This document shows, piece by piece, positions 19,641 to 55,300 of a DNA stretch of 64,000 bases. The notes under the pieces are model-generated. The model was not told the DNA's origin. It saw nothing but the letters and a program-made list of their open reading frames with translations, and made no database searches. Origin of the DNA: Alphaproteobacteria bacterium (lineage in GTDB: Bacteria; Pseudomonadota; Alphaproteobacteria; RF32; CAG-239); the NCBI GenBank assembly GCA_045111335.1, contig JBGUGE010000076.1, forward strand, positions 85,945 to 149,944, written 5' to 3'. The translations under genes and the position numbers were made by a program. Each line of letters starts with the position of its first letter. Within the stretch, counting starts at the first letter, position 1.

Positions 19641-19652
19641 CTTCTCTTACTC

Positions 19653-21425: not shown

Positions 21426-21442
21426 CGTTTTTTCATCATTTG

Positions 21443-24542: not shown

Positions 24543-24561
24543 TGGTTTTCTCCTCTAAAAG

Positions 24562-33973: not shown

Positions 33974-34014
33974 AAGGCATGGAGCGGCTGAACACAAAAA
34001 CAAAGGAGACGGCG

Positions 34015-34638: not shown

Positions 34639-34672
34639 CTGGTGAGAACCGTAACAAAAAAGGAACCGTGTG

Positions 34673-35365
34673 ATGATAAAGACAGATAAATTAATAAAAA
34701 TATTGGTGGTTGTTCTGCTCGGGCTGATGTATAATCCGTCGGCATCCTTTGCCGAGGAGCCGGATGCGGACACGGATACATACCATTATCAAGCTAAGAG
34801 AAGAACCAAATCCGCCGAGCAAATCAGAGCCGAAGAAGAAGAGGAAGATAAAAAAGAAGAAGAAAATATCGACGATGTAAATTATGACAACACATATAAT
34901 AAACTTCCGTTGCTTCCGGAGGCTATGGTTTTGCGCTGCAAGATGAATGCGCAGGATATTGCCGAAGATTTGTCTTTGTTGGATGAGTGTTTCAAAATAA
35001 TTAAAAGGGCGGAAAATAACGCCAATGCAGCCATTAAAATGCAAGCCATTCATGATTTTGACGTTATAAACAATCAGGCTCTGACGGATTCGCTCGCCAA
35101 TGCCAGTCTCAAGTTAATCAGCTCTTCAAACTACGAGGATGCGCAAAACAATTATGTCAACAGTACATTTATGTCGGGAACTCAACGTGAAACAGAAGTA
35201 GCCTTAGGCAATACGCAGGGTTTTCAAAATGACTTGTTGAACAATTATCGCGGGATACTCGCTGAAGAGCTTAAGCGCCGAGCGATTGAGGGAATCATGA
35301 ATATAGACCCGTCGGCGATTCTGAACGAAGACGAATACAACGAAAGCAAACATGCAACACCATAA
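34673..35365 (+). CDS. Secreted helical protein, paralog A of a two-member family (VirB5-position)
   Basis: Signal peptide (NPSASFA). Alignable with the next gene: LPLLPEAMVLRCKMNAQDIAEDLSLLDECFKII vs GELFPPAMVIKCKTNAEDMAKEFSKLEECIKLY; YRGILAEELKRRAIEGIMNIDPSAI vs VRDLYAEELKAMAIAGIQNIDPAAI. The 5' leaders are also similar (aaaaggaacYgtgNgATGATAAA). Confidence 0.65.
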   Translation: MIKTDKLIKILVVVLLGLMYNPSASFAEEPDADTDTYHYQAKRRTKSAEQIRAEEEEEDKKEEENIDDVNYDNTYNKLPLLPEAMVLRCKMNAQDIAEDLSLLDECFKIIKRAENNANAAIKMQAIHDFDVINNQALTDSLANASLKLISSSNYEDAQNNYVNSTFMSGTQRETEVALGNTQGFQNDLLNNYRGILAEELKRRAIEGIMNIDPSAILNEDEYNESKHATP

Positions 35366-35384
35366 AGGAAAAAGGAACTGTGAG

Positions 35385-36755: not shown

Positions 36756-36800
36756 TGAGGCAAACGGTATTAAAAAGGGCAAAGCAGAAGGGAGGATAAA

Positions 36801-37907
36801 ATGAAGAAATACATATTGACATTTGTAGTGACCATCGGTCTGCTGTTGCCTAAAGATGCATTGGCAATGCTTGATTTTTTGAAAGATTTGGTGGAATTCC
36901 TCGAAAACTGTCAGGAACAAGTTACACGCGTGGTTGACGATTACAATAAATATCAAATGCAGTTGCAAGAATATACAACTACCATGGATAACGTTAAAAA
37001 ATACAAAAAAATGGCACAAAAAGCTGTTGATACCGGAAGAAAGGTCAGACGTGTGGCGTCCGGAGATTATTCGGAATTCTTCAATACCAAACTCAGCAGT
37101 CTGCAGTGGCCGGGACTTGATGCCGCGTCCGATGCCGGTGAATATGTTACGCCGCAAGTCAAACGTCAGGTTGCGCTGTCTTATTTTAAGAAAAGACACA
37201 CCAACAAGGATATTGAAACTACAGCTGCCAAAGATGAGGCAATGAACAATTTAGGCATTGATAACTTGGCGATTGATTATGCCAACGCGCTGTCAAAACG
37301 CAAAAATATGCTGGACGAGTTGGAGAAAGACTCAGATGACGAAGAAGATTCAGATGACGGAAAAGACGTTAATGAGTTAGAGCAAAAATACGGCGTTGTG
37401 AATCGTCGCGCCAATCACCGTTGGCAAGATATAGTAATGTTTGAGGCATCGCATATTTCCAATACGTTGAAACCTAAAGCCAACAATATTCGTGTTGACG
37501 ATATGTCGGAAGTTATCGGTGAAGACGCCAAAGAGGCAGCTACCGAGTTGCAGAATCAGGGTGTGAGAATTCCGGAAAACGGTTCTAACGGATTTTTCAG
37601 AGACAATGTGACTGTCGGTGATGTTTATCGTTTGGCTACATCCGGTATAGACGCATTAAAACGTCAGGATTACTCATCAGCATTCAATTCCATGTCCGGC
37701 TTATATTCCGGCACCGGAAAGAGTGACCCTAAGGTAGAAGAAACATTGCGCAAGATTTCAAGCAAAATGTCTACAAGCGAGTATATTTATGATCGGGCTG
37801 AGGCCGGTGATTATGATAGTGTAATTGATAAAACCTATGACGAAGGTAAAGGCTATTATGACGAAATCAATAAAACAAAAAAAGAAAAGGAGAAAACCAA
37901 TGATTAA
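36801..37907 (+). CDS. VirB5/TrbJ-like secreted protein (extended)
   Basis: Signal peptide (PKDALA). The mature N-terminus MLDFLKDLVEFLENCQEQVTRVVDDYNKYQMQLQEYTTTMDNVKKY resembles the TrbJ/VirB5 N-terminal helix, with a QYQ-x-QLQ-type motif. 368 aa, longer than typical VirB5. Confidence 0.5.
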   Translation: MKKYILTFVVTIGLLLPKDALAMLDFLKDLVEFLENCQEQVTRVVDDYNKYQMQLQEYTTTMDNVKKYKKMAQKAVDTGRKVRRVASGDYSEFFNTKLSSLQWPGLDAASDAGEYVTPQVKRQVALSYFKKRHTNKDIETTAAKDEAMNNLGIDNLAIDYANALSKRKNMLDELEKDSDDEEDSDDGKDVNELEQKYGVVNRRANHRWQDIVMFEASHISNTLKPKANNIRVDDMSEVIGEDAKEAATELQNQGVRIPENGSNGFFRDNVTVGDVYRLATSGIDALKRQDYSSAFNSMSGLYSGTGKSDPKVEETLRKISSKMSTSEYIYDRAEAGDYDSVIDKTYDEGKGYYDEINKTKKEKEKTND

Positions 37908-39165
37908 AAATCTGAAAAATAAGGGAATACTCCTGTTTGTTATGTATCTTTGCGGAGCCGTTTGTCTTTATACGCCGCAGGCTCACGCCATAGCTTTTAT
38001 TGATTCCATTTCGGGATTACTGATGGACTTGGGTAAAAAGATTATGAAAGATCAGAGCAACGAAGAAACAAGTACCAGCGGGCAATTAGAAGAACAAAAC
38101 GCAAAAACCGTAAAGGCTGATGATAACGAAGGTAAAGAATTGTTTGATAACGTTCTTCGTGATACGGCAGATATCGCGCATGATGTGGCCAAAGGTCAAT
38201 ATATGGCCGGTGATTATTCGGCACAAGGTTTTATGGAGGCTTTTTCCAGTCAGTTGGGTGATTTAAGCAGAACCTATGACGACTGGGAAAGAAAGATGAA
38301 CGATAAAATAGAGTCTGAAGAAAAAGCCAAAATGGATAAAAAATTTGAAATGCAAAAACAAATGGTGGTTTTACAATCGCAGCGTGATGCATTAAATGAA
38401 TTGATTATGCAGGAATCTACGGAAGATCGTGTGGCTCAGCTGAATAAGTTGGATGAGGCTATTGCCGATTTGGCTAAGCAAATCAGAGAAAACGATGAAA
38501 AAGATGTAATGAACACCAGCGAAGTCAGAAAAGCTAAACGCGAGATGATGAAACTTGAGCAGAAAATGGAGTCGGTCTCGGCGAAGTATTCGGAACAAAA
38601 TGTTGCCAATATGATGCAGACCGAGATGATGAAATTGTTCCAGACGGATCCGAATAAAGATGAAAAAGAAGCGTATTCCACCGTTATCAGCAAGCTGTTT
38701 TTGCAGGAAGATGAATCGCCGAATTCGGAAAATATCAGACGCATTATGAACGAACGTAAGCGCGAATATTATGACGCCGTTAAAAATGCACTGGAAACGG
38801 TGGTCAGCGCTAAAGACAGCATTGAACAAACCAACAAACGCAGCGAGGAGTGCACACAAATGGTTACGGAGCAGGCAGACGGTGTGTTGGGCTCGTTGGG
38901 TATTGCTCAATGTGTGGAAATGCAAAGAGCCATTGTGGCGGTAGGATATATGGAAATTTTGTTGGCGATGATTCAGTTGGATACTACGGCCGAAATGCAA
39001 AAATGGGATAACAAATATCAACTGCGTGATTATGAAAAAGATATCACGAAATTCAATTTAGACGACTACATGATGAAGAAAGATGATTGGAAAACATCGT
39101 GGCGAGATAAGGCCAGAGAAAGAATCAAAAATGGTTTGGCTCAACATTTCAGCGGATATTTTTAA
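37900..39165 (+). CDS. Secreted coiled-coil protein of unknown function (possibly VirB5-related)
   Basis: AAGGAG RBS before the ATG at 37900, with an 8-nt overlap with the upstream gene. Signal peptide (PQAHA). The mature end IAFIDSISGLLMDLGKKI. Long K/E/M/Q-rich helices. Confidence 0.6.
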   Translation: MIKNLKNKGILLFVMYLCGAVCLYTPQAHAIAFIDSISGLLMDLGKKIMKDQSNEETSTSGQLEEQNAKTVKADDNEGKELFDNVLRDTADIAHDVAKGQYMAGDYSAQGFMEAFSSQLGDLSRTYDDWERKMNDKIESEEKAKMDKKFEMQKQMVVLQSQRDALNELIMQESTEDRVAQLNKLDEAIADLAKQIRENDEKDVMNTSEVRKAKREMMKLEQKMESVSAKYSEQNVANMMQTEMMKLFQTDPNKDEKEAYSTVISKLFLQEDESPNSENIRRIMNERKREYYDAVKNALETVVSAKDSIEQTNKRSEECTQMVTEQADGVLGSLGIAQCVEMQRAIVAVGYMEILLAMIQLDTTAEMQKWDNKYQLRDYEKDITKFNLDDYMMKKDDWKTSWRDKARERIKNGLAQHFSGYF

Positions 39166-39180
39166 TCTGAGGAGGGTACA

Positions 39181-42100
39181 ATGACAATGAGTAATTTGAA
39201 AAAATTTATCTTAGTTTTAATGATGAGTGCTCTCTTCAGAGGAGAGGCAACGGCTATGATGATGGATATGAACCCGTCAACTCCGGGGCCGTCACCGCAG
39301 GCAAATCTGACCGGTACGCCATCCGAATTGTCGTTGTTGACGAGCGCAATTAAGGAAATTAATAAGAATCGGCAGACGCTGAAGTCAATGACCGATATGA
39401 CTCGAATTAAGCAGTTAGCCAAGAGTTATGCCTCTAAGTTGGGAAATACGGCGCTGAATATGCTCAAAGGCCAAAATTTCCAGAAAAACAAAAAGGTTAT
39501 TACTTATTCGCGGACGATTGAGGATTGTAAGGAATATAAGGTTACCGATGAAAACGGCTCTATGCAGCTGGTTAAGGCCAACAATCCGTATTTGGTGAAA
39601 AAAGCGTTTGTAAACCTGTTTTTCCAATATCCGGATAAAAATAATCAGGCTAAATATGCGTACGAGCAAAAAGGTGAGCAACTTAAAATGGATACCACCA
39701 TTGAAATGTTTATCACTGCCAAGGAGCTGCAGAAAAAGTTGGTGGGAAGAGAAATCGAACTGTTCGGGGCTCCGATTGTATTTCCGGATAAAGATCACAG
39801 CGAAGATGTCAGCGATATTGAAGAAAAGCTGAGCAGCGCTTCAATGGAGGATTTGGGGCTGGTTACGCAGTTACGCCTTTATGAAAGATGTCTGGTCGGG
39901 GATCAGTTCTGCGATATAATCGGGGTTACTTCCTGCGTCGGCAAGGGCGATTCCGGCGGTGATCGCGGTGGTCAGGTACAGTCCGGCGGGGGCAATAACA
40001 ACGAAGATATGGCGTGCTTCTGGAACAGCGCCATCAAGGCTGAGAAGTTGTATGATACGATTATGCTCTACAACGAAATGTTGGTTGCCATGCTGGCACA
40101 ATACCGCTCGGTTATGGGTATTTCTTCCATAGCTAAAATCAGAGAATATAAGAGTGAAGAAGAAAATAACAATGACCAAACGTCGGCATTGGAAGCTCCG
40201 TATCATCAAAACAATATCGTGGTTTCGCAAAAAATAACGGCAGATGCGATGTTTGCCGATATGACGGCGGCCGATCGTTTTGCGGAGAGAATGGATAAAA
40301 AATATAAGGATATGATGAAAGATCCGGCCAAAAACACCGGCGGCGATTTTGAGCGTGCAAACGGTGCCACAGGATATTCTCATATATTGGAAAGCCGCAT
40401 GGAAAACTTTGCCGATCTGGAAAGCTTGGCCGCGGCGGAAGAATATGTACAGAAGGCTGAAACGATTCATAGTGCGTTGCAGCGATTGCCGACTTATGAA
40501 GATATATACAAACAACACGAATATATTAAAAGGATGCATGAAATCAGTCGTCAGATGGTGATGTATTCAAGCGAATGTGCCATGAGGATGTTGGAACCGT
40601 ACTATGAAAGTCCGGAAGAGGCAATGTTTGGTGCCAATGACTGTTATGTTGCCCACAACGATGAGGGTGAGCCTAACGGTAAGATTGTTTGCCATACGAT
40701 TAATCATAAGGCGTTTGAGCATCCGAAAACCAGCCTGGAAGAAGTTGCCTGTCGGGATTCATCAAGCGGAACCTGTTATATGGCCGATATTGATGAATAT
40801 ATCGACTCGCTGAGTGAAGAAGATCTGGATGAAAACGGCGAAGAAAAACCGTTGGAGAAACCGGTGTTGGTTGAGGCTCCTTCCAAGGGCGGTATCATGC
40901 AGTACTTAATTGATTTGTATCGCGTGGCCATTGACGGTAATGCCGTTTATGAATATGACAAAGATGTAAACGTCACGGTTGAATCTGCCAACGAAACCGA
41001 AAGTGCAGACTATTCTTCGCACCTCAATATTAAATCGGATGTAGAGAATCCGGAATTGGACGAGGGTAAAAACCGCGGTGCCAAATATATGAATATGTAT
41101 GAAGTGCCGGAAGATGAGAATAATCCGGACGGTGGTGTTCCGCCGACAAATTATGATGAACCGGAAGATTCTTCCACCGTTTTCGTAACCGAACGGGATG
41201 ACGACGAGGTTACGGATAAGGACGGATTTAATGATAAAAGAAAGGATATGGCGGAAAATCCGGGAGATTATGAGCGTGATCCGAGTGACAGAAGCTCACA
41301 GCCGCGTGCTCAGGATGATGCCGCTGCTGACGGATTGACCAATGATACGCAGGTTGAAAATCTGTTGCGTTGGACCATCGGTAAGGAAATAATGAGCGAT
41401 ATTGCACTCGATCTGCCTTGCGGTTTGAACACGGCAGGAGGCGAATGCTATCATGATCCGATTCACTTTGCCGAACCGAAAGCCAAATTTATTGTATGGA
41501 AAGATCAACGGGAATTTTATGATCAATATATCGACGGAAAATATGAAAATATAAAGCAATATATTGAGACGGCTCCGGCAATTATTTTGTTGTTGAACGT
41601 TGCCGAATCTTTAGGTATAGACGCGGGAATTGCCAACAAAATTTTAGATTTCTATGAAGAAGATGAAACCGGAAAAATTGAGGCCGTATTGCAAGAACAG
41701 GACGAAAGATTCAAAAAAGTTGATGAGGACTATCTTGATAAAATCAAGCCGTTGAATGAAGAAAGAGAAGAACTCGTTACCAGAAAAGATGAGCTGGGAA
41801 AAGAACTCAATAAGCAAAACGGTATTTTCAATCAGGCTCGGCGTGAATTGAAGGGTGCCGAATTGGCTAAAAGTAACTCGGACCACGGTAACGAATTCAA
41901 CCGCAATATGTATGAGCAAGCCGGCAGAACCGATGTTGATGTCGATGCCATGCCGCAAACCAGGCAATACACGGAATTGACCGCAAATGCCGAAGCTCGC
42001 CGCGAAGAAGCCGAAAGACAAAAGACAAGATCCAAGGAACGAGCGGAAGAAATTGAAAGAGAGCTTGAAGATATTGAAGACAGACTTGAAGAAATTGATG

Positions 42101-44541
42101 ATGAATTGGTGATATTGCGCCAGAGATACGTTAAAGATTTGAGTGATGCCGAATATATCGATATGACCAAAAGTGAGGATTTAACCTCCGGTATGCTCTC
42201 GGCCAGAAGTGATTTCAACCCGACTACCTTAACCATCGCCGGAGAAGAAATCGAAATGCCGGTTGTGCCGTTAGCCACGGAATTGATGAGTTGCGTTCGC
42301 GATAAGATGCTCGATATAATTAAAAAGCATGAAGAAAAATATCTTGAAACCATGCGCGGATATATGTATTCCATCAACAACTATGTCAAACCTAACTTAA
42401 ATCCGATAAAGTCACCGTTGGTGTACCATCAGGAACTGATGAAGAAATTGACTAATTTAACGGCCGCTGATCTTGCGGGTTGTCCGGGGGTTGATGTTTT
42501 TGCCGGAGTTACGGGCGGAATCAACTTTTTTGCTCATACCTGCGGCGATGACGGAGAAAAATGTCTGAAAGCGCCGGTAGAGCTCGACCTTGAGAATAAT
42601 GCGCAAGAATCCTGCAACAATATTATGGAACCGGATATGAACGGAGAGGGATATCTGAACCGCGATAATTTGGCATACTTTGTCGGCATGATCGGGCAAC
42701 CGAAAGACCTGTTGGCACCGTATCCTCCGGGATGTCCGATAGGTGACGAAGGGATACCGCTGCGCGAAACGGTTCACTTCAACAGCGATGACTATTCATC
42801 CATCTCCAAGTATTTCCAAAGACGTGGACCATTCGGCCTGAAACAGGGCGATGAGGACGATGCCGAAGAAAATACGGATATGTATATCAGCCTTCGCTTG
42901 TTGCTCAAAGAGCTGCTTAGTGAGACTCCGGGTATGCAAATTACCTCAACGGATAATTACATCGGCGGCGTAGAGGGGGCAAAAACATCAATTATGCCGT
43001 ATTTCTGGAAGTGGATTTTGAGCCCGCGTACATACATTCAGCGTAAGTTTGATTTAAGAAAGCTGATTGGTGTTCAAAACGGTACTTCCGAAGAAAGAGT
43101 GGTCGCCAAGCGCACACAACAAGAGCTTCGCCGCTCCGGTATGTATCCGTGCCGCTCTTATGAATATGATATGGAGGGCAAACCTACCCACAGAGTATTT
43201 TATGATAAATACGGTGTTTCTACCGGTGTTGAGGTTCAATACTTTGTTGATCTTGATCGCGAATTGCATTTCAGCATACCGCAAATGCCGCCTGAAAAAT
43301 ATACACGTGAAAATCCGTATATTATCGGCCGTATGAGTCAACATCCGGAATGGTTGCTTTATACATCGGTACCGTATAATTCCGAACACCCTGAAGAAAC
43401 TCCTATCCCAGAAGTAATCAGAGGCGTCCGCGAGTGTTTGGCGGTTCAGGCACGGGTTGAAGATCCGGAAACCGGCGAAGGTTTGCGCGTGTTTGACCTT
43501 GAAACCGAGGCAGATATGGACAACCACACCTATGATTATGTCGGTCCGGGTGAAGGCGGCTATGCCGGCAGTGAATTGGGACAAATCTTTACCTATTACC
43601 GCAATAATGGGGATAAGATTATGGTTAAAGAACATAATGAAACCGCGTGCGAAGCAATCTGCGGTTCGAGTTCAATATGCCGCAGTATGGTTCCGGAATG
43701 TCAGGACGAAGTCTTAAACGACCCGTTACGCCTAACGTTTAACGCAATGCTTATTAAGTCCTTCTTTACCAACTACGAAGATTACGGTCGGGAAGGCCAT
43801 GAAGAAGAAACGTCGTGGCAAAATAATGCAACTCGGGTTGCGTTGGATAAAAACCAGTTCGGAGATTTCTTGGATCAGGTTGAATCCATGCGCGTAACGG
43901 CCGATAATCTGCTCAATTCCGAGAAGAAGATGAGCAGTGTTCAGCACGATTTGGAAGAGTCCTTAAACATTCAGGAAGACGATCAACTCGCCAACGCATC
44001 CGGTGAGCAGGAAGACAGTCCGGACAGATTTGTGTTCGGTCCGGATTTCAAACTGATTAATGATCCGGAAAACGAAAACGATGACTATGATCGTCTGCGC
44101 AGAGCGTTGATTGAGCGCAAGATGTATTATCTTGATTCGGCTCTCTCGATTTTGCAAGATCTGCAATTTACGCAAACTTATACAACCGAAGACGGTTCTA
44201 CGGTTTCGGGAGATGCCGTTGAAACGATTAAACGTCGTTTTCTCGACATATTGCGCCGCATTACGTTGTATAAGATAGACAGCGAAAATTGCGGCGGTTA
44301 CGCCGACTGCGGTATCGAGGATTATCCGGGAGATTTGGTAACCATCGGCGGCGACGAAATCGAAGCTGATGAAAACGGTGAGTTCCATTTGGAGGGCAGT
44401 GAGATGCTCGAAAAAATGAAACAGGCTAAGGCCGACTGGGATATCATTGTTGAAACGGCCGCCGAACAAGATGCAGAACGTGAAAAGCGTCTGCGGAAGT
44501 TTGTTCGCCCGTATTGCACCTCGTATTGGCGTGTTTTCTAA
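39181..44541 (+). CDS. 1786-aa secreted Cys-rich giant protein of unknown function
   Basis: GAGGAGGG RBS. Signal peptide (LFRGEATA). About 30 Cys, often in close pairs (FCDIIGVTSC, CEAICGSSSICRSMVPEC, CGGYADC). A central R/E coiled coil (RREEAERQKTRSKERAEEIERELEDIEDRLEEIDDE). No internal TM helices. Confidence 0.8.
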   Translation: MTMSNLKKFILVLMMSALFRGEATAMMMDMNPSTPGPSPQANLTGTPSELSLLTSAIKEINKNRQTLKSMTDMTRIKQLAKSYASKLGNTALNMLKGQNFQKNKKVITYSRTIEDCKEYKVTDENGSMQLVKANNPYLVKKAFVNLFFQYPDKNNQAKYAYEQKGEQLKMDTTIEMFITAKELQKKLVGREIELFGAPIVFPDKDHSEDVSDIEEKLSSASMEDLGLVTQLRLYERCLVGDQFCDIIGVTSCVGKGDSGGDRGGQVQSGGGNNNEDMACFWNSAIKAEKLYDTIMLYNEMLVAMLAQYRSVMGISSIAKIREYKSEEENNNDQTSALEAPYHQNNIVVSQKITADAMFADMTAADRFAERMDKKYKDMMKDPAKNTGGDFERANGATGYSHILESRMENFADLESLAAAEEYVQKAETIHSALQRLPTYEDIYKQHEYIKRMHEISRQMVMYSSECAMRMLEPYYESPEEAMFGANDCYVAHNDEGEPNGKIVCHTINHKAFEHPKTSLEEVACRDSSSGTCYMADIDEYIDSLSEEDLDENGEEKPLEKPVLVEAPSKGGIMQYLIDLYRVAIDGNAVYEYDKDVNVTVESANETESADYSSHLNIKSDVENPELDEGKNRGAKYMNMYEVPEDENNPDGGVPPTNYDEPEDSSTVFVTERDDDEVTDKDGFNDKRKDMAENPGDYERDPSDRSSQPRAQDDAAADGLTNDTQVENLLRWTIGKEIMSDIALDLPCGLNTAGGECYHDPIHFAEPKAKFIVWKDQREFYDQYIDGKYENIKQYIETAPAIILLLNVAESLGIDAGIANKILDFYEEDETGKIEAVLQEQDERFKKVDEDYLDKIKPLNEEREELVTRKDELGKELNKQNGIFNQARRELKGAELAKSNSDHGNEFNRNMYEQAGRTDVDVDAMPQTRQYTELTANAEARREEAERQKTRSKERAEEIERELEDIEDRLEEIDDELVILRQRYVKDLSDAEYIDMTKSEDLTSGMLSARSDFNPTTLTIAGEEIEMPVVPLATELMSCVRDKMLDIIKKHEEKYLETMRGYMYSINNYVKPNLNPIKSPLVYHQELMKKLTNLTAADLAGCPGVDVFAGVTGGINFFAHTCGDDGEKCLKAPVELDLENNAQESCNNIMEPDMNGEGYLNRDNLAYFVGMIGQPKDLLAPYPPGCPIGDEGIPLRETVHFNSDDYSSISKYFQRRGPFGLKQGDEDDAEENTDMYISLRLLLKELLSETPGMQITSTDNYIGGVEGAKTSIMPYFWKWILSPRTYIQRKFDLRKLIGVQNGTSEERVVAKRTQQELRRSGMYPCRSYEYDMEGKPTHRVFYDKYGVSTGVEVQYFVDLDRELHFSIPQMPPEKYTRENPYIIGRMSQHPEWLLYTSVPYNSEHPEETPIPEVIRGVRECLAVQARVEDPETGEGLRVFDLETEADMDNHTYDYVGPGEGGYAGSELGQIFTYYRNNGDKIMVKEHNETACEAICGSSSICRSMVPECQDEVLNDPLRLTFNAMLIKSFFTNYEDYGREGHEEETSWQNNATRVALDKNQFGDFLDQVESMRVTADNLLNSEKKMSSVQHDLEESLNIQEDDQLANASGEQEDSPDRFVFGPDFKLINDPENENDDYDRLRRALIERKMYYLDSALSILQDLQFTQTYTTEDGSTVSGDAVETIKRRFLDILRRITLYKIDSENCGGYADCGIEDYPGDLVTIGGDEIEADENGEFHLEGSEMLEKMKQAKADWDIIVETAAEQDAEREKRLRKFVRPYCTSYWRVF

Positions 44542-46434: not shown

Positions 46435-48072
46435 ATGAGAATGAGCGTTAAAACACTGATATTGATAATGATGGGAATATTACTTTCCGGTAACGTTTAT
46501 GCCGCGGGTTTGGTCACCGACGACAGTCTGGACCAATCGGCCGATCAGGCTCAGGGAAATTATCAATCCATGAATCTCGGATATGCCGGTTTCGGTTCTA
46601 TCGGTATGTTTCAGGAGGCATGGCAGGATCCTTTGCAAAATTTGGGCGAGGGACAAAGTAAACCGGCTTATTCTAAGTATTACTGGTCGCCGGACTTGGT
46701 ATTGCCTATCAGATTACGTGAAGGTATGATTACATTGTTGAATTTTCCGGAATGGGAATTGATTGAACATGTGTTTGTCGGCGATACGGGAACTTTTGCC
46801 GGATACATCAATCCGCCTAACACGGTTATGTTGTATCCGAAACAGGGCGCAACCGTCGGCAACGATACCAACGTGATTGTTATCGGTCGCTCCGGCAACA
46901 AATATGTGTTTTATGCGCGCAGTGAAGGAATTAATACCGAAAGGATTACCAACTCCATCATAGATATTGATGTTGTCGGCGACGGCACATCGGGAGGTGG
47001 TCCCAGGGGTGGCGAGATAGCAGGCGGCAGCGGCCGTGTAAGCGCTGTGGGATTTGGTACCGGTGGTCTGGAAAAAACGGCAGATGCTACGTTTACTCGT
47101 CGGTTTTTGAAGGAAGATTGGTTGAAAAGTATACCGATGGATCCGGAAAAATTCCGCTTTGATATCGAAATATATGTGCCTAATCCGGATGATGTGATTA
47201 TTGCCCCGGAACGCGCTTGGCATGATGATATTTTTACCTATATCGATTTGGGAGAAAAGGCTATTAATATGATACAGCGCCCGATTGTAACCATGATTAT
47301 CGAACGCTCGGAAACACCTGTCGGTTTCAGAACCAAAGGTCCGAACAATCGGTTGATTATTGTTGAGGGCGTGGGCGATATGGTAATGCGCAGCGGCAAG
47401 CGAATGGTATGCTTGAAAATGCGTCGTTCCGATGAAGAAGGTACGCAATATGTAACCTATGCCGATACCAGCAATGAGTGGGATATCGCACCGGCTATTC
47501 CGGGTAAAGGCGGCAACAACGGGGCCGGCGGGAACGGTGCATCGGGTGCGTCCGGCGGTCAAAATCCGACCGGAGTAGGTTCCGGTAGCGCTGCGGGAGC
47601 CGGTGGAGCTAACGGAGGCGGTGTATACGTACCGAACGGTGCCAATGCAGAATCCGGCGGCGGTGTATATGTTCCGAACGGTGCCAACGCAGGCGGATAT
47701 CCGGGAGATATTGATTGCAGCGGTATGGCGCAGTTGAGCACCATTGATAGCAGCAGGGGTAAGAATTTGCCTTCGCAATATCGCTATGGCAGCGGCTTTG
47801 AAGGACAAACCTCTGACAGTCTGTCGATAGAATTGGGTACGGATTCAAATGTCAACAATCTGGAAACGTTATGGCATGATTTATCCGGTCGCTATTCGTC
47901 ACTTTTGAGCAATTATGAGCCGTTCTATTCGGTAGATACACCGGCGGACGGACAAGGCAAAGAGTTGTTCCACCTGCGGGTAGGTCCGGTCAAGAGTTTG
48001 GACAGCGGTGATGCCGTGTGCAGCCAACTCGGCAGAAACGGTGTATTTTGTAGTGTAGTCAGGGTGCAATAA
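46435..48072 (+). CDS. virB9: VirB9/CagX-like protein fused via a Gly-rich linker to a C-terminal SPOR-like domain
   Basis: Signal peptide (SGNVYA). N-terminal VirB9 block (LPIRLREGMITLLNFPEWELIEHVFVGDTGTFAG...NVIVIGRSGNKYVFYARS). C-terminal VirB9 block (WHDDIFTYIDLGEK...PIVTMIIERSETPVGFRTKGPNNRLIIVEGVGDMVMRSGKRMVCLKM). G/N/A-rich linker. The final ~75 aa (LSIELGT...LFHLRVGPVKSLDSGDAVCSQLGRNGVFCSVVRVQ) fit the SPOR pattern. Confidence 0.8.
   Translation: MRMSVKTLILIMMGILLSGNVYAAGLVTDDSLDQSADQAQGNYQSMNLGYAGFGSIGMFQEAWQDPLQNLGEGQSKPAYSKYYWSPDLVLPIRLREGMITLLNFPEWELIEHVFVGDTGTFAGYINPPNTVMLYPKQGATVGNDTNVIVIGRSGNKYVFYARSEGINTERITNSIIDIDVVGDGTSGGGPRGGEIAGGSGRVSAVGFGTGGLEKTADATFTRRFLKEDWLKSIPMDPEKFRFDIEIYVPNPDDVIIAPERAWHDDIFTYIDLGEKAINMIQRPIVTMIIERSETPVGFRTKGPNNRLIIVEGVGDMVMRSGKRMVCLKMRRSDEEGTQYVTYADTSNEWDIAPAIPGKGGNNGAGGNGASGASGGQNPTGVGSGSAAGAGGANGGGVYVPNGANAESGGGVYVPNGANAGGYPGDIDCSGMAQLSTIDSSRGKNLPSQYRYGSGFEGQTSDSLSIELGTDSNVNNLETLWHDLSGRYSSLLSNYEPFYSVDTPADGQGKELFHLRVGPVKSLDSGDAVCSQLGRNGVFCSVVRVQ
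47617..47700 (+). repeat. 42-nt in-frame direct duplication in the Gly-rich linker (GGVYVPNGANA x2)
   Basis: ggcggtgtataYgtWccgaacggtgccaaYgca occurs at 47617 and again at 47659. Confidence 0.85.
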
Positions 48073-51000
48073 ATGAGTAAAGGTCCGTTAACAAGAGCAG
48101 ACAAATATGTTAAGAAAACCGATAAAATCTTTTTATTTATCGGTATCATCTCCTTTTTGCTGTTCATATTTGTGCTTTTGTTGTTAACTTCGGGCGGCGA
48201 AGAAGAACAGCCGATAGCAAGGCTTGAAAATGACGGCATCGGTGCCGAAACGGCAATAGATGTTAAACCTACGGAAGTGCCGGATGATGTGGTATTTAAC
48301 TCTCCGGATGAAGAGGATCGTCCTATAACCCTGTCGCCGCTTGAACTGAATATGGGCCAAATCGTTTTGGGTAACGAAGCTTCAAACGTTTTAACCATCG
48401 GCACCAACGGCAAACGCGAGATTCGTATTCTTTCGGTTGAACTCGAAGATGCTCCGTTTGAAGGTTTCAGTTATGATTCTTCTAATTGCCAGAACAAGGA
48501 ATTGCGCGGCAAAGTAACCTGTATGGTAACCACCAAATGGGTCCCGACAATGGCAGCCAATGTTCAGAGTAACTTTAAAATCATCTGGCACGAAACCAAC
48601 ATTTCGGCGCAAAATGCCAAGCACGACGAGGTAACGGTGCGGGGTAGTGCGGTTACTAAGGAAAATTGTAATTATTGCGACACCGGTGATGCAAGCGGTT
48701 CCGGAGATGTGGCGGCAGACGGCGTGCGCTATGCCGTAGGGCCGGACGGTAAAATAATCGGAACCATAGGTGATGACGGAATTGTGCGTGATGCCAACGG
48801 TCGCGAAATCGGCCGCATTAATGCCGACGGTATGATTGTTGATGCCGAGGGTAATATTATAGGTGTTGCCTCAAACGGTAAGTTGATTATTGATGAAAAC
48901 GGCAATGTTATCGGCTATGTTGATGCCAACGGTGTGGCTTATGATATGGACGGTAATGTTATCGGCAATATGCTGCCGGACGGCACAATTGTTGACAGCA
49001 GCGGAAAGATTATCGGTAAAGCGGTGGATTACGGTATCGCCGTTGATGCCAATGGCAATATCATCGGTAAGGTTTTGCCGGACGGAACGGTGGTTGATGC
49101 CGACGGTAATGTTATCGGCAGACTGGATGCCAACGGAAATGTGGTTGACGCTAACGGCAATATCATCGGTCGGGTGGCCAAGGCCGGCGAAGTTGTGCTC
49201 GATGAAAACGGCAATATTTTGGGTGTGGTTATGCCGAACGGAGATGTGGTTGACGCCGACGGTAACGTTATCGGGCGGATGAATGCCGACGGCACGATTA
49301 CCGCACAGGAAAAAATAGGTAAGCGCGGCGGTCAGGCACAGATGGTGTATGACGAAAACGGTAATATCATCGGTTATGTTGACCAAAACGGTATGGTGCG
49401 CGACTTTAACGGCAATATCATCGGCAAGGTAGATGAAAACGGTAACGTAATTGATAAAAACGGCAAGATTATCGGTCATGTCAGCGATGAATGGCGTGAT
49501 TTGGCACTGGATAACGACGGCAATGTTATCGGTTATATTGATGAAGACAATATGGTACATGATGCCAACGGTAATATTATCGGCTATGTCGACGAAAACG
49601 GCAATATTATAGGCAATAAGCCTAAAATTAACGTGGTCGGCACGGTTGGCGGTAAAGTTAAATTGGTGGTCGACGAAAACGGTAATGTCATCGGCTATAT
49701 TGATGAAGACGGGATAGCTCACGATCTGAACGGTTCGGTTATCGGCCATGTTGATGAAAACGGTAATGTTATTGATGAAAACGGTAATATCATCGGATAT
49801 CAACGCGATTTGGCCGTAGATGATCAGGGTAACGCCATCGGTTATATTGATAACGATGGCAATGTTTATGACTTTGACGGTAATATTATCGGGCATATGG
49901 ATGAAAACGGTAATATTATCGATGAAAACGGTAATGTAATCGGCCGCAAGGGTGAAATGCGCATTGCTTTGGATAAAGACGGCAACGTTATAGGTTTTGT
50001 TGATGAAAACGGCGTGGCACACGATTTTGACGGAGCTTTTCTCGGAACGGTAGATGAAAACGGTCAAATTATTCGCAAAGATTATTCCGGTGATGTCATC
50101 GGACACGTCAGTGAAACCAAAGAACTGGTACTCGATGAAAACGGCAACGTTATAGGATTTCTCGATGATGACGGTAATTTGATTGATTTTAACGGCAACC
50201 GCGTCGGTCATGTCGATGAAAACGGGAATATTGTCGATGGTGCGGGTAATATCATCGGTCGTCACGGCGACAGAGCGGCATTGGCAACCGATTCCGAAGG
50301 CAATGTGGTCGGCTATGTAGATAAAAACGGTTTGGTACGCAAAGGCAAGGATATTGTAGGAATCGTCGATCCTAACGGTAATGTTCGGACTATCGGCCGT
50401 CGGGTTATCGGCGGAATTATCGATAAGCAATGGCTGCCGATTACGCCGGCCGGAGAATTGCTCGGTGTTATCAATAATCGCGGCGAAATCGTTAACCAAC
50501 AGAAAGTTGTGGGCAAAATGCGGCCGAACGGCTTAGCTACCGATATGTCCGGCGCTAAAATTTTAGCCAAAGGGGTTAAGCAGGGTTATATCGTGAATTG
50601 GGGCTGCGATTACAGCTTGAAGCTCGATAAGGACGGTGTGGTGCGCCGCGACGGTCAGGAAACCGGCTATAAAGTATATCCGGACGGCACGGTATGGACG
50701 CCGGAAGGTATGTTTGCCGGTCGCGCCATGATGACGGGAAGTGTTTATGATAACGATTGTTCGTACATCGGTGAAGCGGCGGCTGACGGGTATGTGCGTG
50801 ACAGCAACAATCAGGAAGTCGGTTGCATAAATCCGGACGGCACGGTTTTGGATTTGGAAGAGCCTCGCATTAAAGGACATTTGGTAAACCGCAGCTTTGT
50901 TATTTCGGCTACAACATGGAAACCGATAGGTATTTTGGATGAAAGCGGTTTGGTTCGTGATAAGTTGGGTGAGGCGGTAGGTTGTGCCGATTCTTTAGGC

Positions 51001-52308
51001 GATGTTTATGACGCTGATGCGGCATATATCGGTAAAGTCGCCGACGTAAAACAGGTTTACGGTTTTGACGGCAAGCCGCTCGGCGAGGTAAGTAAAACCG
51101 GTTCGGTTGATTTGGCGGACGGCCGTTCGGCGTATGTCAGCATTAACAATTTGGTGATGGATCGCAACAATAAAATCTATGGTTTTGCCGTACCGGAAAT
51201 CAATATTTTCTATGATTCTACCGGTCGCAGAATCGGTCATCTGTTTGCCGACGGTTTGGTATATGATCCGTCAGGCGCGGTGGTAGACGGTATTAACAGC
51301 GGCGATATCGGATATTATAACGGCATAATAGCCAAGGTTGTTCGACCGTTGTATGTTGTGGATACTTTGGGTAATGCCATCGGCAGAGTAAATTACGATT
51401 TATCGGTGGTTGATTATAAAGGTGCCCGAATCGGCAGGGTTAATGCCAAAGGACAAATGTTTGATGACGGCGGTCGTTTGGTCGGCGGTGTGGTTAAACA
51501 GGGCGGTGTTCGCAGTTATGACGGCGCTTTCTTGGGTTATGTCGTTTCAACCGGTAAAGTGATTGAATTGGAGAATATTAAGGACGGCTCGTCACGTAAA
51601 TATCGTCGCGGCGAAGTAACCGGTAATGTTACGCCGGACGGATTTATTATTCATGAAGATAAAATTGTGGGAGAGGTCTTGCCGGAGAGTGTAATGCTTG
51701 ATGTTTACGGCAATCCGGTGGGGCTGACCAACAGCTTCGGTATGATTATCGGCAACAACCGCAAAGATATTACCGCTTTGCTGCCGGGCGGAGGTAACAA
51801 CAGCAATTTGGTGGCGATGCAATATGGTGCCGTAATCAATTCTGCCGGCGAAGTTATAGGTACGGCGGCAATGAACGGCGAATATTTGGATACCAAGCAT
51901 ATTATGGCGGGGAAAGCCATGCCTGATGGTAAAGTTATCAGCACGACCGGTAAGTTTTTGGGTGAAGTTATCAGCGGCGATATCGTAATCGGCAACGACG
52001 ATCTGATTAAAGGTACGGTCGGTTTTGACGGCAAAGTTTTCCATAACGGTAATATTATCGGCAAAATTCTGACGGACGGTTTGGCTATGGATACGCAAAA
52101 CAACATTATCGGTCACGTATATGTCATCGGCAATACAATTTTATCCGATACCGGTGAATATGTCGGCAGATTATCAGCAAACGGACGCGTTATTTCCGGC
52201 CAAAACAATGAAATCGGATATCTTAAGAGTAACGGCTCTTTTGTTGACGCCGATAAAAATGTGTCGGGATACAGCTTGCCGGAAGTGGCTCGGAATAGGA
52301 GGAATTAA
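48073..52308 (+). CDS. 1411-aa membrane-anchored protein: TM, Ig-like module, then ~1200 aa of G-N-[IV]-I-G type repeats
   Basis: The ATG abuts the virB9 stop (TAAATG). TM IFLFIGIISFLLFIFVLLLLT. An Ig/ASH-like segment (ITLSPLELNMGQIVLGNEASNVLTIGTNGKREIRILSVEL...CMVTTKWVP). The rest is 10/20-aa units such as VDANGNIIGKVLPDGTVVDADGNVIGRL. Confidence 0.85.
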   Translation: MSKGPLTRADKYVKKTDKIFLFIGIISFLLFIFVLLLLTSGGEEEQPIARLENDGIGAETAIDVKPTEVPDDVVFNSPDEEDRPITLSPLELNMGQIVLGNEASNVLTIGTNGKREIRILSVELEDAPFEGFSYDSSNCQNKELRGKVTCMVTTKWVPTMAANVQSNFKIIWHETNISAQNAKHDEVTVRGSAVTKENCNYCDTGDASGSGDVAADGVRYAVGPDGKIIGTIGDDGIVRDANGREIGRINADGMIVDAEGNIIGVASNGKLIIDENGNVIGYVDANGVAYDMDGNVIGNMLPDGTIVDSSGKIIGKAVDYGIAVDANGNIIGKVLPDGTVVDADGNVIGRLDANGNVVDANGNIIGRVAKAGEVVLDENGNILGVVMPNGDVVDADGNVIGRMNADGTITAQEKIGKRGGQAQMVYDENGNIIGYVDQNGMVRDFNGNIIGKVDENGNVIDKNGKIIGHVSDEWRDLALDNDGNVIGYIDEDNMVHDANGNIIGYVDENGNIIGNKPKINVVGTVGGKVKLVVDENGNVIGYIDEDGIAHDLNGSVIGHVDENGNVIDENGNIIGYQRDLAVDDQGNAIGYIDNDGNVYDFDGNIIGHMDENGNIIDENGNVIGRKGEMRIALDKDGNVIGFVDENGVAHDFDGAFLGTVDENGQIIRKDYSGDVIGHVSETKELVLDENGNVIGFLDDDGNLIDFNGNRVGHVDENGNIVDGAGNIIGRHGDRAALATDSEGNVVGYVDKNGLVRKGKDIVGIVDPNGNVRTIGRRVIGGIIDKQWLPITPAGELLGVINNRGEIVNQQKVVGKMRPNGLATDMSGAKILAKGVKQGYIVNWGCDYSLKLDKDGVVRRDGQETGYKVYPDGTVWTPEGMFAGRAMMTGSVYDNDCSYIGEAAADGYVRDSNNQEVGCINPDGTVLDLEEPRIKGHLVNRSFVISATTWKPIGILDESGLVRDKLGEAVGCADSLGDVYDADAAYIGKVADVKQVYGFDGKPLGEVSKTGSVDLADGRSAYVSINNLVMDRNNKIYGFAVPEINIFYDSTGRRIGHLFADGLVYDPSGAVVDGINSGDIGYYNGIIAKVVRPLYVVDTLGNAIGRVNYDLSVVDYKGARIGRVNAKGQMFDDGGRLVGGVVKQGGVRSYDGAFLGYVVSTGKVIELENIKDGSSRKYRRGEVTGNVTPDGFIIHEDKIVGEVLPESVMLDVYGNPVGLTNSFGMIIGNNRKDITALLPGGGNNSNLVAMQYGAVINSAGEVIGTAAMNGEYLDTKHIMAGKAMPDGKVISTTGKFLGEVISGDIVIGNDDLIKGTVGFDGKVFHNGNIIGKILTDGLAMDTQNNIIGHVYVIGNTILSDTGEYVGRLSANGRVISGQNNEIGYLKSNGSFVDADKNVSGYSLPEVARNRRN
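48715..50440 (+). repeat. Most regular part of the coding tandem-repeat array (~30/60-nt units, with seven ~150-nt higher-order units from ~49342)
   Basis: ga[tc]gaaaacgg occurs at least 14 times between ~48.89 and ~50.22 kb. Protein-level units have the form L-x-[LV]-D-E-N-G-N-V-I-G-[YF]-[IV]-D-E-D-G-x-x-H-D-x-N-G-x-x-I-G-H-V-D-E-N-G-N-[IV]-I-D-E-N-G-N-[IV]-I-G. Confidence 0.9.
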
Positions 52309-52310
52309 TA

Positions 52311-55300
52311 ATGTTGAGAATAGTACGGAACATCAAAAATATATTATTCTTAGCAGCTCTCCTTCTGCCGTGGCGCGGCTACGCGGCGGAAATCACCGCT
52401 ATTGACTTTAACGGTAATATCATCGGTCAGGTTATTTCAACCGGTATGGTTATCAATCCGGACGGAGATAATATCGGTACGATTACGGCGGACAGTTTGA
52501 TTATAAATTCCGGCGGTACGATAATCGGCGGTGTGGTGCCGCAAGGTATTGTCATCGGGTTGGATAACCGGTTGCTCGGAAAAATTTATGCCGACGGCGT
52601 GGTACGCAGTTTGAGCGGCAAAACCCTCGGTAAGGCTTTGCCTAACGGTTTGGTTATTGACGATATGTCAAACATTATCGGTGCGATTTTATATCCGGGC
52701 ATTATTTATTCGCCAAACGGCGAGGCAATCGGTCGGCTAACCGGCGGCGGCGAATATACCAAGTTGGAAGGCCAGCATATAGGCTTTGTTTCGGCCAACG
52801 GTTATGCTTATCGCAAATCGGGCGAAGATTATGTCTTAGACGGCAAGTTGATGTCATCTAAAATGGTGGTTTCGGTTGCAGGCAAGTTTTTAGGCAGTAT
52901 TGCTCCTACCGGACAGATTATTGATTTTGAAGGCAAGGCCATCGGCAAAATTCATGCCAACGGCTATGCCTATGACGCACAGGATAAGGTAATCGGCAGC
53001 ATTATTTCCACCAGTTACGCTTTTTCGCAGGCCGGCAGTTATATGGGTATTGTTGGATATAACGGCGAAGTTAAATCCGGCGAAAAAGTTGTGGCCAGAT
53101 ATCGCGCCGACGGCAACTTGGTGCGCGATACGGGGGATGTTGTCGGTTTTGCGGTCGAAATATCGGCCACTGCCAATGATAATTATGGAAAATATTTAGG
53201 ATATATCGTGCCGGACGGCAATATCGTTCACGGCGGTAAAGTTGTCGGCCATGTCGGCGCTAAAGGTTATGTTTATAACGATAAAGGCAATAAAATCGGT
53301 GAATTGGTTAAAACCGGTCCGATTTTCGACAGCTTGGCGCGCCTTAAAGGTCAAAGTATGAAAAACGGTCGAGTGATTTCTTTAGGCGGCGGCAATATCG
53401 GTCAGATGTCCGGTTCTTGGGCTTATGATGCCAACGGTACGCTTTTGGGCGGTACCGTAAATGATATGATTGCCCTTGACGGCAGCAAGTTTATCGGAAT
53501 CTCCAATATAGATGCGGGAATCACCGAAGGGGCAACCAATGCACGCATTTCACCGTTTGGCTATGTAATCGGTGCGGACGGCAAAATTATGGGTTCCGGC
53601 TATGCGTTGTCGGCGGTATACGGTTCGGACGGAGTGTTATATTCGTATATTGACCCGAACGGTGGGTTGTATCGACCGACAAGCAACAATTTCCTGAGCG
53701 GTTCGGGTATTGTTTATGACGACCGGAATTTTATCGGTGAAGTCTTAAATCCGCGCTATGCGTTGGATTATAACGGCAAGCCGCTCGGCAAATTTGCCAA
53801 CAGTAACCTGATTTTGAACAATAAGAATGAGGTAGCTTATAAGGTTATTCCGGGCGGGTATGTTGTAGAAACCAAAGATAAATTATCTCCGATGACAACG
53901 CCGATTAAAGGTTTTGGCGGCAATAAGATCGTGGCTTTGAACACCGGTGGCGATTTAATCGGTTATGCCGACAGCGAAGGGCGCGTTATCGGCACTAACG
54001 GCGAAGTGGTCGGTCAGGTTTTGTATAACGAATATGTGGCCGATAACAATAAGATTGTGAACGGTAAATTGGTGCCGTTTGCCACGGTGGTTAATGATAA
54101 ATGCGCAATTATCGGTATGGTTGACGGCAAAGGCGATGTGATTGACCATCACGACGTTATCAGCGGCCATATTTTGCCGAACGGACAGGCGATTTCCGAT
54201 GTCGGTAACTATATCGGTTACACGGTTGAGCAACATGGTTTAATTGATTATAACGGCAACTTCAGCGGCACGGTCAGCGGCGCTACGGGTAGAGATTTAA
54301 GCGGCAAAATCATCGGTTGTGTCAACCGTCAGGGTATAATTATCGATGAAGAACATCATCAGCGCTACGGCGTTATTTTGCCGGAACCGGTAATGGATTT
54401 TGAAAATCAGTTATTCGGCCACGTTTTAGCCAATGGTAAGGTCGTCAATGTTGAAGATAAAACAATCGGTTATATGCAGCCGAACGGCAACGTTGTTTCC
54501 TCCTCCAAAAGAACTTTGGGTAATGTAATGCGCTATAAAGTGGCATATTCCGACTCCAATGAGTTCTTGGGAATGGTTGACAGTGCCGGTTTGGTTAAAA
54601 ATACCAGAGGTAAAATTGTCGGTAAAGTTAACTTCGACGGTAGTGTTGAAAATAACGGCGATAATATCGGTTATGCCCTGTATGACTTTTATGTTTATGA
54701 TGAAAACTTTATCGTTTACGGCTATTTAACCAAAGACGGCACAGTGTTAAGCATGGTCGGAAGCCGGTTAGGCAAACTTGACAGAGGCTTTGTTATTGAC
54801 CGCAGAGGTGATGTGGTAGCCCGCGGCAACCGTGATTATTGGGTCAGAGACGTAAGTCATAATGTAGTCGGTGAGTTACAGATGAGCGGAACGGTCGTCA
54901 GCACGGAAGGTGTAAATATCGGTTATTTGAAGGATGGCGGAGTGATTCATGATGCCGATGAAAATGAAATTGCCGTCGCAACCCGCTATCAATATTATGT
55001 TCCGTCACATGTTGAGACAGTACAGCCGCAAAAACCGGTAACCCCGAGGATAAACGATTATGAGGAGCCGGAAGAAGAAACCGATGTATCAACCTCGGAA
55101 CCGCGCAAACGACACAGAACCAAATACGGCGAACAAAATCTCGGTATTGCCATCAGTCCGGAGGGCGATTATCTCGGCTACATCGATTTGGATGGAAACG
55201 TTATCAATAATCAGGGTGAAGTTATCGGCTATACGCAGCCTGACGGTACGGTGGTGGATATAAACTATAACCCGATAGGTATGGTTGCCGATAAAGCGGC

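Follow-up and report, generated by a model that had tools for sequence, protein, structure and literature searches.

In this study, we analysed a 64,000-nucleotide stretch of DNA (the window) from an Alphaproteobacteria bacterium (contig JBGUGE010000076.1), and within it an open reading frame (ORF) of 1411 aa, here named X, that is located between virB9 and virB10 (48073..52308, plus strand). Our analysis suggests that X is probably the inner-membrane-anchored N-terminal half of a giant VirB10 encoded as two adjacent, coupled genes. [quoted passage not shown] Family scans of the window showed that the neighbourhood of X is a virB-type T4SS operon, in the order VirB8, VirB7-like lipoprotein, VirB8, VirB9, X, VirB10, and VirB11. 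X starts with ATG and has an intact frame. Its ATG directly abuts the virB9 stop codon (CAA TAA ATG), and a gap of 2 nt separates its own stop from the virB10 ATG at 52311, with the coordinates and both junctions as given in a preliminary description of this DNA. That description also took X for an integral member of the operon, which was confirmed by the same position and junctions in approximately 65 species-level genomes and by a ratio of nonsynonymous to synonymous substitution (dN/dS) of ~0.1. It is true, as was also stated there, that canonical operons have nothing between virB9 and virB10. However, X does not appear to be an extra component, as a single gene encoding 2200-2400 aa is found in a sister clade. 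Since the N-terminal module of X aligns with the N-termini of giant VirB10 proteins, and since the loci of these fused proteins have no X, we read X as half of a VirB10 rather than as an additional gene.

N-terminal module, X/virB10 junction, and split and fused forms

A homology search with X returned approximately 35 clusters of stand-alone X orthologues of 1100-1580 aa and more than 75 clusters of 2200-2400-aa proteins that carry the same repeats together with a C-terminal TrbI domain. Residues 1-205 of X align end to end with the N-termini of these TrbI-bearing proteins; X anchors on the first ~246 residues of the fused giants and the window VirB10 on the last ~350. In the fused-type loci L003 and L004, the order is VirB8, a small ORF, VirB8, VirB9, VirB10 (2290 aa), and VirB11, with nothing between virB9 and virB10. 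In the split-type loci L001 (a human-gut relative, Hadza/Nepal), L085, and L086, X and a VirB10 of ~1400-1480 aa fill the slot between virB9 and virB11, as in the window. The inner-membrane anchor is found on X only and the outer-membrane barrel on VirB10 only. The TrbI domain (PF03743) had no match in X, and by domain definition X alone is not a member of the VirB10 family. The single-gene giants (for example P0036, P0038, P0046, and P0098, 2200-2400 aa) share with X and its partner the tail, transmembrane (TM) helix, ASH domain, CxxC motif, repeats, TrbI domain, and operon slot. In NCBI they are unnamed or called 'DUF3659 domain-containing protein', and no description of single-gene giant beta-flower VirB10s was found in the searched literature.

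The N-terminal module of X opens with a basic tail of 18 aa, MSKGPLTRADKYVKKTDK, which contains six Lys or Arg residues (aa 1-18, 48073..48126, immediately preceding 48127; all features of X and virB10 are on the plus strand). Alignment showed that this tail is homologous to the 'SSSEQYVKKSNR' tail of the fused giant VirB10s, with Tyr12 invariant. The tail motif S(S/T)(E/D)(Q/K)Y(V/I)KK(S/T)N(R/K) is present in all X-type and fused proteins with a complete N-terminus. The tail is followed by a single TM helix, the predicted inner-membrane anchor (aa 19-39, 48127..48189); residues 19-37 have a 19-aa Kyte-Doolittle mean of 3.28, and this is the only such segment in X. By the positive-inside rule, the tail would be cytoplasmic. 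An acidic, poorly conserved linker, seen as variable gapped alignment columns (aa 40-84, 48190..48324), leads to an ASH/PapD-like immunoglobulin (Ig) domain that ends in CxxC(D/E) (aa 85-205, 48325..48687). This domain was assigned from alignment, AlphaFold, Foldseek, and Pfam. Its four invariant Cys residues (C139, C150, C199, and C202) fit with a periplasmic location. The module has eleven invariant positions, namely these four Cys together with Y12, P89, G100, F132, W156, P158, and W172. All X-type and fused proteins with a complete N-terminus have the tail, one TM helix, a module of ~120 aa, and CxxC(D/E) near residue 195-200.

The Ig module of X was modelled by AlphaFold as a beta sandwich with a pLDDT of ~66-81. 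Foldseek matched it to HYDIN (2e6j, prob 1.0, TMt 0.70, rmsd 3.0 Å) and also to CEP192 (6fvi) and VesB (4lk4). The Pfam ASH family (PF15780) scored 16.4 bits on X, under the cut-off of 27, and matched 18 of 20 relatives, all below the curated cut-off (best E 5e-07). The HYDIN match and these sub-threshold matches support the ASH-like character that had been proposed for the module. The proposed layout of X as a basic tail, one TM helix, an Ig module, and repeats up to the C-terminus was likewise in agreement with the hydrophobicity, Pfam, and fold data. The ASH-like Ig part of the module profile also matched more than 10,000 cluster representatives. Among these matches (P0121-P0263) are giants, for instance P0121 with 4358 aa and P0170 with 7256 aa, in which as many as 38 copies stand in tandem.

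The downstream gene, which starts with the ATG at 52311, encodes a VirB10 of 1389 aa. Its first 25 residues (52311..52385) form a Sec-type signal peptide by sequence pattern, with cleavage predicted. In split VirB10s, the n-region is basic, the hydrophobic core counts 10-15 residues, and a small-x-small (AxA-like) site follows; the predicted mature N-terminus, (A/Q)EITA(I/V)DFNG (EITAIDFNG), is conserved across the split clade. A hydrophobicity scan found no segment at or above the TM threshold anywhere in the window VirB10. The signal peptide is followed by beta-flower repeats (aa 26-1010, 52386..55340; Bflower_2, E 4.7e-46, seven stretches), a Pro/Gly-rich linker read from the sequence (aa 1011-1091, 55341..55583), and the TrbI/VirB10 C-terminal barrel (aa 1092-1295, 55584..56195; PF03743, E 2.4e-30). 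The repeat type of X is therefore present in the adjacent VirB10, ahead of the TrbI domain, as had been noticed in the preliminary description. The barrel is homologous to ComB10 (2bhv, 2e-17), TrwE, and CagY, and its region matches the ComB10 and VirB10 NCBIfam models below their equivalog cut-offs. From the EITA motif to the start of TrbI, split VirB10s measure 1046-1080 aa in 46 of 68 loci. Some split-type loci (L059, L069, L072, and L074) encode an X of ~1300-1400 aa and a VirB10 of 2080-2318 aa.

X and virB10 are also connected at their junction. X ends with the tail LPEVA(K/R)NRRN (aa 1402-1411 and stop, 52276..52308), which is conserved in ~65 loci; orthologues always end in G(Y/F)xLxE(V/A)A(K/R/Q)NRRN-stop, with the virB10 start within a few bases. 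The two Arg codons of this tail read AGGAGG (52297-52302) and occupy the Shine-Dalgarno position of virB10. In 52 of 63 distinct junctions they are CGG-AGG or AGG-AGG, which spells GGAGG before the virB10 start, while AGG and CGG account for only 4.7% and 8.7% of Arg codons elsewhere in X orthologues. Since the tail codons of X double as the virB10 Shine-Dalgarno sequence, this sequence pattern indicates that X and virB10 are translationally coupled. Two other explanations of the junction were considered and rejected. A programmed frameshift or read-through joining X and VirB10 does not agree with the spacing and frame, which vary from species to species (-1, 0, +2, +3, and +5 nt), or with the ribosome-binding site and signal peptide that VirB10 has of its own. 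An assembly artefact splitting one gene does not agree with the same junction in ~65 independent metagenome-assembled genomes (MAGs).

The distribution of the locus was examined by scanning species-representative genomes with a TrbI-domain alignment. Relatives were found in 301 genomes, and the best 80 of these were examined. All 80 were uncultured MAGs, from the rumen of goat, sheep, deer, and yak, from Hadza and Nepali human gut, and from horse and rabbit, and most were labelled Alphaproteobacteria; they belong probably to the order RF32. The ORF carrying the N-terminal module abuts the TrbI ORF, which is the split layout, in 65 of the 80; 14 were unassignable to the split or fused layout, most through an early contig end. 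In neighbour-joining trees of the N-terminal module, of TrbI, and of both concatenated, the split (59) and fused (77) forms separated without misplacement. This pattern is consistent with a single event, after which both halves were inherited together. Five genomes (L028, L029, L043, L056, and L075) carried this alphaproteobacterial T4SS locus on long contigs under the labels Bacteroidaceae, [Ruminococcus] gnavus, Eubacteriales, Lactobacillaceae, and Lachnospiraceae; these bins are probably mislabelled or mis-binned.

Beta-flower repeats of X

The preliminary description regarded the repeat of X as an unrecognised type with units of ~10/20 residues. In this study, we found that it matches curated Pfam beta-flower families of clan CL0395 and that its period is 17 aa (51 nt). 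Bflower_2 (PF21785) matched X with an E of 2.2e-76 and 253.3 bits against a cut-off of 38, in 11 stretches, and it was found in all nine overlapping 200-aa windows between aa 205 and 1411. Bflower (PF21784) matched with 4.8e-35 and 120.9 bits against a cut-off of 25, and DUF3659 with 4.2e-27. Durairaj et al. (2023, PMC10584680) describe the beta-flower fold as shallow barrels, 4-, 5-, or 6-fold, that are formed by short hairpins with an [DNEQ]xxG tip. The fold came from AlphaFold models and was reported without a PDB relative or known function (PMC10584680). The likeness of X to this family consists of the strong profile matches, the tip motif (e.g. D-E-N-G), and a secondary structure made up of short beta hairpins. 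However, the described members are mostly single domains of ~100 aa, some of them lipoproteins (Durairaj et al. 2023), whereas X has ~65-70 hairpins in one chain inside a T4SS subunit. A search of PDB sequences with X gave no match.

The regular beta-flower region, defined by Pfam, period analysis, and AlphaFold, contains 31 canonical units (aa 222-777, 48736..50403), and 20 of 32 spacings are exactly 17 aa. The unit reads V-D-E-N-G-N-I-I-G-x-V-D-x-x-G-x-V, its two turns being D-x-N-G and D-x-x-G, and shows the [DNEQ]xxG hairpin-tip motif of the fold. A three-hairpin super-repeat of 153-162 nt overlies the 51-nt period. At the DNA level, the copies are mostly 60-80% identical to the reference copy, with a best value of 88%, and Tandem Repeats Finder reported two short arrays only. 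Since most copies are only 60-80% identical, the array is old, unlike the recombination substrates of cagY. A CagY-like variable antigen or recombination substrate was considered as a candidate and rejected, in view of the divergence between the DNA copies and of the purifying selection.

The second part of the repeats (aa 780-1401, 50410..52275) is a body of fixed length with ~35 sequence-degenerate hairpins, defined by a length survey, AlphaFold, and Pfam. A length comparison of X with 17 orthologues gave 621-632 aa in all 18 sequences for the stretch that corresponds to X 780-1411, and 336-721 aa for the stretch that corresponds to X 85-640. Since the body of X and the repeat region of split VirB10 are fixed or nearly fixed in length, the regular-repeat region is the only freely length-variable element of the pair. 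AlphaFold models of X consist entirely of short-strand hairpins in which short and longer loops alternate. The N-terminal module together with the regular repeats had a mean pLDDT of 70 and a pTM of 0.41 (regular repeats ~60-89), and the C-terminal body had a mean pLDDT of 89.9 and a pTM of 0.88. The body was modelled with ~70 short strands and a short helix at the conserved tail, and it is predicted to be one rigid unit. Foldseek gave no global PDB match for it; hairpin-level local similarity to Rhs, teneurin, and Tc shells was found with E ~1e-17, TM <=0.1, and rmsd ~30 Å. The repeats do degenerate toward the C-terminus in sequence, as had been described, but the C-terminal half is the part most conserved in length and most confidently predicted. 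Against five closer orthologues, the dN/dS of X was 0.07-0.20 in the N-terminal module, the regular repeats, and the C-terminal body alike (~0.1), values that are approximate as dS is near saturation. Every part of X is under purifying selection.

Proposed assembly, origin, and alternative explanations

If X is the anchor half of a divided VirB10, X would provide the cytoplasmic tail, the TM helix, the periplasmic ASH/PapD-like domain, a variable hairpin chain, and a rigid body of ~630 residues. Behind its Sec signal peptide, the downstream gene would provide ~1000 residues of beta-flower repeats, the Pro/Gly-rich linker, and the TrbI barrel. The barrel would join VirB7 and VirB9 in the core complex of the outer membrane, the VirB10 repeats hanging beneath it. 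The two proteins may dock non-covalently in the periplasm, probably with the body of X against the repeat region of VirB10. Docking would restore a VirB10 that spans the envelope and connects the ATPases of the inner membrane with the outer-membrane pore, and the regular-repeat region of X could serve as a flexible tether of adjustable length. Each X-VirB10 pair has ~130-140 hairpins, and when this number is multiplied according to the ring symmetry of the core complex, the arrays would amount to a periplasmic collar or cylinder of large size. The role of X as a periplasmic stalk or scaffold is plausible. More tentatively, and with less confidence than we have in X as the anchor half, we propose that the split halves, with the energy-sensing inner-membrane anchor on one polypeptide and the outer-membrane pore domain on the other, may re-associate through their beta-flower arrays into a multi-megadalton periplasmic collar. 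This would represent a third independently evolved class of expanded T4SS, alongside Cag and Dot/Icm, in abundant uncultured Alphaproteobacteria of the gut and rumen.

Canonical VirB10s are ~380-480 aa long and have one chain with a short Pro-rich linker. X and the downstream gene share with them (A. tumefaciens VirB10, pKM101 TraF, R388 TrwE, and H. pylori ComB10) the tail, the TM helix, a periplasmic linker, the TrbI barrel, and the slot between virB9 and virB11. However, the ASH domain and ~2200 aa of beta-flower repeats stand here in place of the linker, and the protein is divided between two chains. CagY of the H. pylori Cag T4SS is a VirB10 homologue enlarged ~five-fold by repeats between the anchor and a TrbI-like C-terminus. 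DotG/IcmE of the Legionella Dot/Icm T4BSS ends in a TrbI domain, and its middle region, which is rich in repeats and variable in length, has been proposed to form a collar or central channel. The repeat-rich middle domains of CagY and DotG have been proposed to account for the 13-fold periplasmic collar seen by cryo-electron tomography (cryo-ET), and minimal VirB10 systems have no collar (10.1101/2023.03.22.533729). The repeats of CagY rearrange through recombination of nearly identical DNA copies, and part of this protein is presumed to lie at the cell surface; DotG also varies in length through its repeats (PMC6761968). The CagY repeats are of a different sequence type, whereas X has beta hairpins, diverged copies, purifying selection, and a split gene. 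The DotG repeat is a 10-aa motif (10.1101/2023.03.22.533729) in place of a 17-aa hairpin, and DotG keeps its own membrane anchor, unlike split VirB10. DotF/IcmG, an adjacent inner-membrane-anchored periplasmic partner of DotG, is loosely like X, but it is small and not homologous to the N-terminus of VirB10.

Individually, VirB10, the ASH domain, and the family of beta-flower repeats were all known before. In the searched literature, nothing relevant was found on a link between DUF3659 and T4SSs, on T4SSs in RF32, or on split VirB10. Relative to that literature, the features that appear to be new are beta-flower arrays as an expansion module of VirB10, the large size, with ~2200 aa of hairpins in each X-VirB10 pair (and, in some relatives, a total protein length above 3400 aa), and a conserved split of VirB10 into one half with the anchor and one half with the pore. 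A clade in which VirB10 is cut in two, and in which both halves are strongly selected and translated in a coupled manner, is a natural experiment that asks whether signalling through this protein needs covalent continuity. With this system, the beta-flower fold also gains a place in a defined molecular machine and, if the proposal is true, its first functional role, as a rigid, length-tunable block spanning the periplasm. It would be a third, unrelated repeat solution for VirB10 enlargement in effector-type T4SSs, after CagY and DotG. The results also point to a conserved chromosomal rvh-like T4SS among uncultured bacteria of the gut and rumen, in at least 301 species-level genomes.

Several points weigh against this reading. 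The docking of X and VirB10 in the periplasm, the topology and expression of both proteins, and the cleavage of the signal peptide are predictions. The beta-flower fold is itself described from AlphaFold models only. The single-gene giants are one polypeptide without an internal signal peptide, and no relic of the junction motifs (NRRN tail, EITAIDFNG) was found in 75 fused proteins. In addition, at 2800 aa the split pair exceeds the fused forms by 400-600 aa, and on the fused giants the matches of the X body and of the split VirB10 repeats overlap. By whole-protein BLAST, BLAST of 120-aa segments, and profile HMMs, only the unique ends anchor and the interiors have no collinear mapping. The interior segments were all drawn to the most regular repeats, an outcome compatible with a clean cut as well as with a cut plus duplication. 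Because the pair is longer, and because the body and the VirB10 repeats match overlapping fused parts, an internal duplication or expansion must have accompanied any split.

A single gene fission is the likeliest origin of split VirB10. It is the more economical history because the one-chain state is universal in canonical VirB10s, because both halves share the repeats, and because nine fused sequences lie beside the split clade. Fusion would be the reverse history: X would have begun as a separate accessory gene of the T4SS, with TM helix, ASH domain, and beta-flower array, beside a VirB10 that was canonical or carried a signal peptide, and the two would have merged in the sister clade into one protein of 2200-2400 aa. 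The TrbI tree, which was rooted at its midpoint without a canonical outgroup, has its root between the split and fused groups and shows neither as derived. The missing junction relics and the greater length of the pair are also compatible with fusion. However, the one-gene state is expected to be ancestral, as canonical VirB10, TraF, TrwE, and ComB10 combine the anchor at the N-terminus with the TrbI barrel in a single chain. Moreover, the midpoint-rooted tree of the N-terminal module groups the nine fused sequences with the split clade and makes the fused form paraphyletic, and the same repeat type in both halves is most simply explained as one array that was cut. We therefore regard fusion as rather unlikely; it would leave the functional reading of two partners in one machine intact and change only the history.

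The other alternatives concern the function of X. As has been proposed for the repeats of CagY, X might be a surface-exposed or extracellular stalk or adhesin, an alternative raised in the preliminary description, with repeats that cross the outer membrane and touch target cells. With ~1200 residues, the hairpin repeats could be longer than the periplasm is wide (about 25-30 nm), the length of the regular repeats differs between species, and the repeats of CagY and possibly DotG have been argued to be host-exposed (PMC6761968). However, X has an N-in signal anchor with a conserved cytoplasmic motif and no cleavage site, and with such an anchor an extracellular location is unlikely from the sequence. 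The low dN/dS in every part of X gives no sign of diversifying evolution, the old DNA repeats differ from the recombination-prone repeats of cagY, and the C-terminal body is invariant in length. We consider this role improbable. Still less probable is an Rhs/YD-repeat shell, that is, a toxin-encapsulating cocoon tied to the secretion system. The preliminary description had not recognised the repeat as the pentapeptide, CagY, MORN, or YD/Rhs type; this held for the first three, but weak formal YD/Rhs profile matches exist (Pfam RHS_repeat, 34.6 bits, and TIGR01643 YD_repeat_2x, 42.1 bits, both weak and summed), and Rhs and teneurin shells were the top Foldseek matches of the C-terminal body. 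These matches are outweighed by the far higher score of Bflower_2, no single RHS stretch passed alone, and the global TM-score and rmsd to the shells are poor. The period of 17 aa differs from the ~20-21 of YD repeats, X has no Rhs core motif, and Pfam found no C-terminal toxin domain in it. Finally, the preliminary description had named a decaying duplicate of the virB10 5' region as a scenario that would overturn its view. Although X and the VirB10 repeat region are paralogous (22-26% identity over 660-880 aa), a non-functional partial duplicate is hardly credible for an intact gene with conserved length and termini in ~65 species and a dN/dS of ~0.1, which holds the only membrane anchor of the pair and the ribosome-binding site of virB10, and of which one locus in ~70 is interrupted. 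In that locus, L053, the X frame (3074-4606) ends after 1533 nt, ~2.1 kb before virB10, with a frameshift, a pseudogene, and an assembly error as possible explanations.

Operon context and neighbouring genes

Directly upstream of X is a VirB9 homologue of 545 aa (46435..48072, plus strand; CagX PF03524, 8e-10). It is about twice the canonical size, contains Gly-rich low-complexity stretches, and has at its C-terminus a borderline match to the peptidoglycan-binding SPOR domain (E 6e-4, 20.4 bits against a cut-off of 21). Further upstream, two VirB8 paralogues (starts 44564 and 45667) flank the small VirB7-like lipoprotein, which has the lipobox LSAC, and VirB4 was located by family scan at 30889-33318. 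The VirB11 ATPase lies directly downstream of virB10 (56491..57465, plus strand; T2SSE, 1.6e-22). Its longest ORF starts at 56242 and overlaps virB10 by 239 nt, but the true start is likely 56491 (MSDFSV..., 324 aa), as relatives measure 322-325 aa. Promoter and terminator scans gave background level only.

The order B8, B7, B8, B9, B10, B11 is that of islet C of the Rickettsia rvh T4SS (PMC2653234) and, apart from X, is common to the rvh system and the window. In the rvh layout, virB3, virB4, and several polytopic virB6 genes are in another islet, and virD4 follows virB11 (PMC2653234). No virD4 was found after virB11 within the 64-kb window. Whereas the rvh system has polytopic VirB6 paralogues after VirB4, the seven ORFs at this position in the window have a single N-terminal hydrophobic segment each, and a hydrophobicity scan found no multi-TM VirB6-like protein among them. 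These seven consecutive ORFs (33401-44541, VirB4 to VirB8) carry N-terminal signal peptides and have no convincing Pfam family match. The largest encodes an acidic protein of 1786 aa (39181-44541), and relatives carry large counterparts of 1290-1412 aa between VirB4 and VirB8.

Upstream of VirB4, three tandem ORFs of ~114-126 aa (28972-29316, 29406-29750, and 29761-30141), each with a signal peptide and two hydrophobic segments, resemble VirB2-type pilin paralogues by eye, and a 96-aa ORF just upstream of VirB4 (30602-30892) looks VirB3-like, also by eye. A type IVb pilus-like cluster of the Tcp/Bfp type (18519-26875, minus strand), with T2SSF, T2SSE ATPase, PilO, secretin, and TcpQ, adjoins the T4SS genes. 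On the other side, engB (yihA), yidC, rnpA, and rpmH are syntenic with the chromosomal T4SS operon both in the window (57462-60366) and in L001 (19333-22461). Since the operon is chromosomal and syntenic with these genes in both, this suggests that it is inherited vertically rather than as a mobile element.

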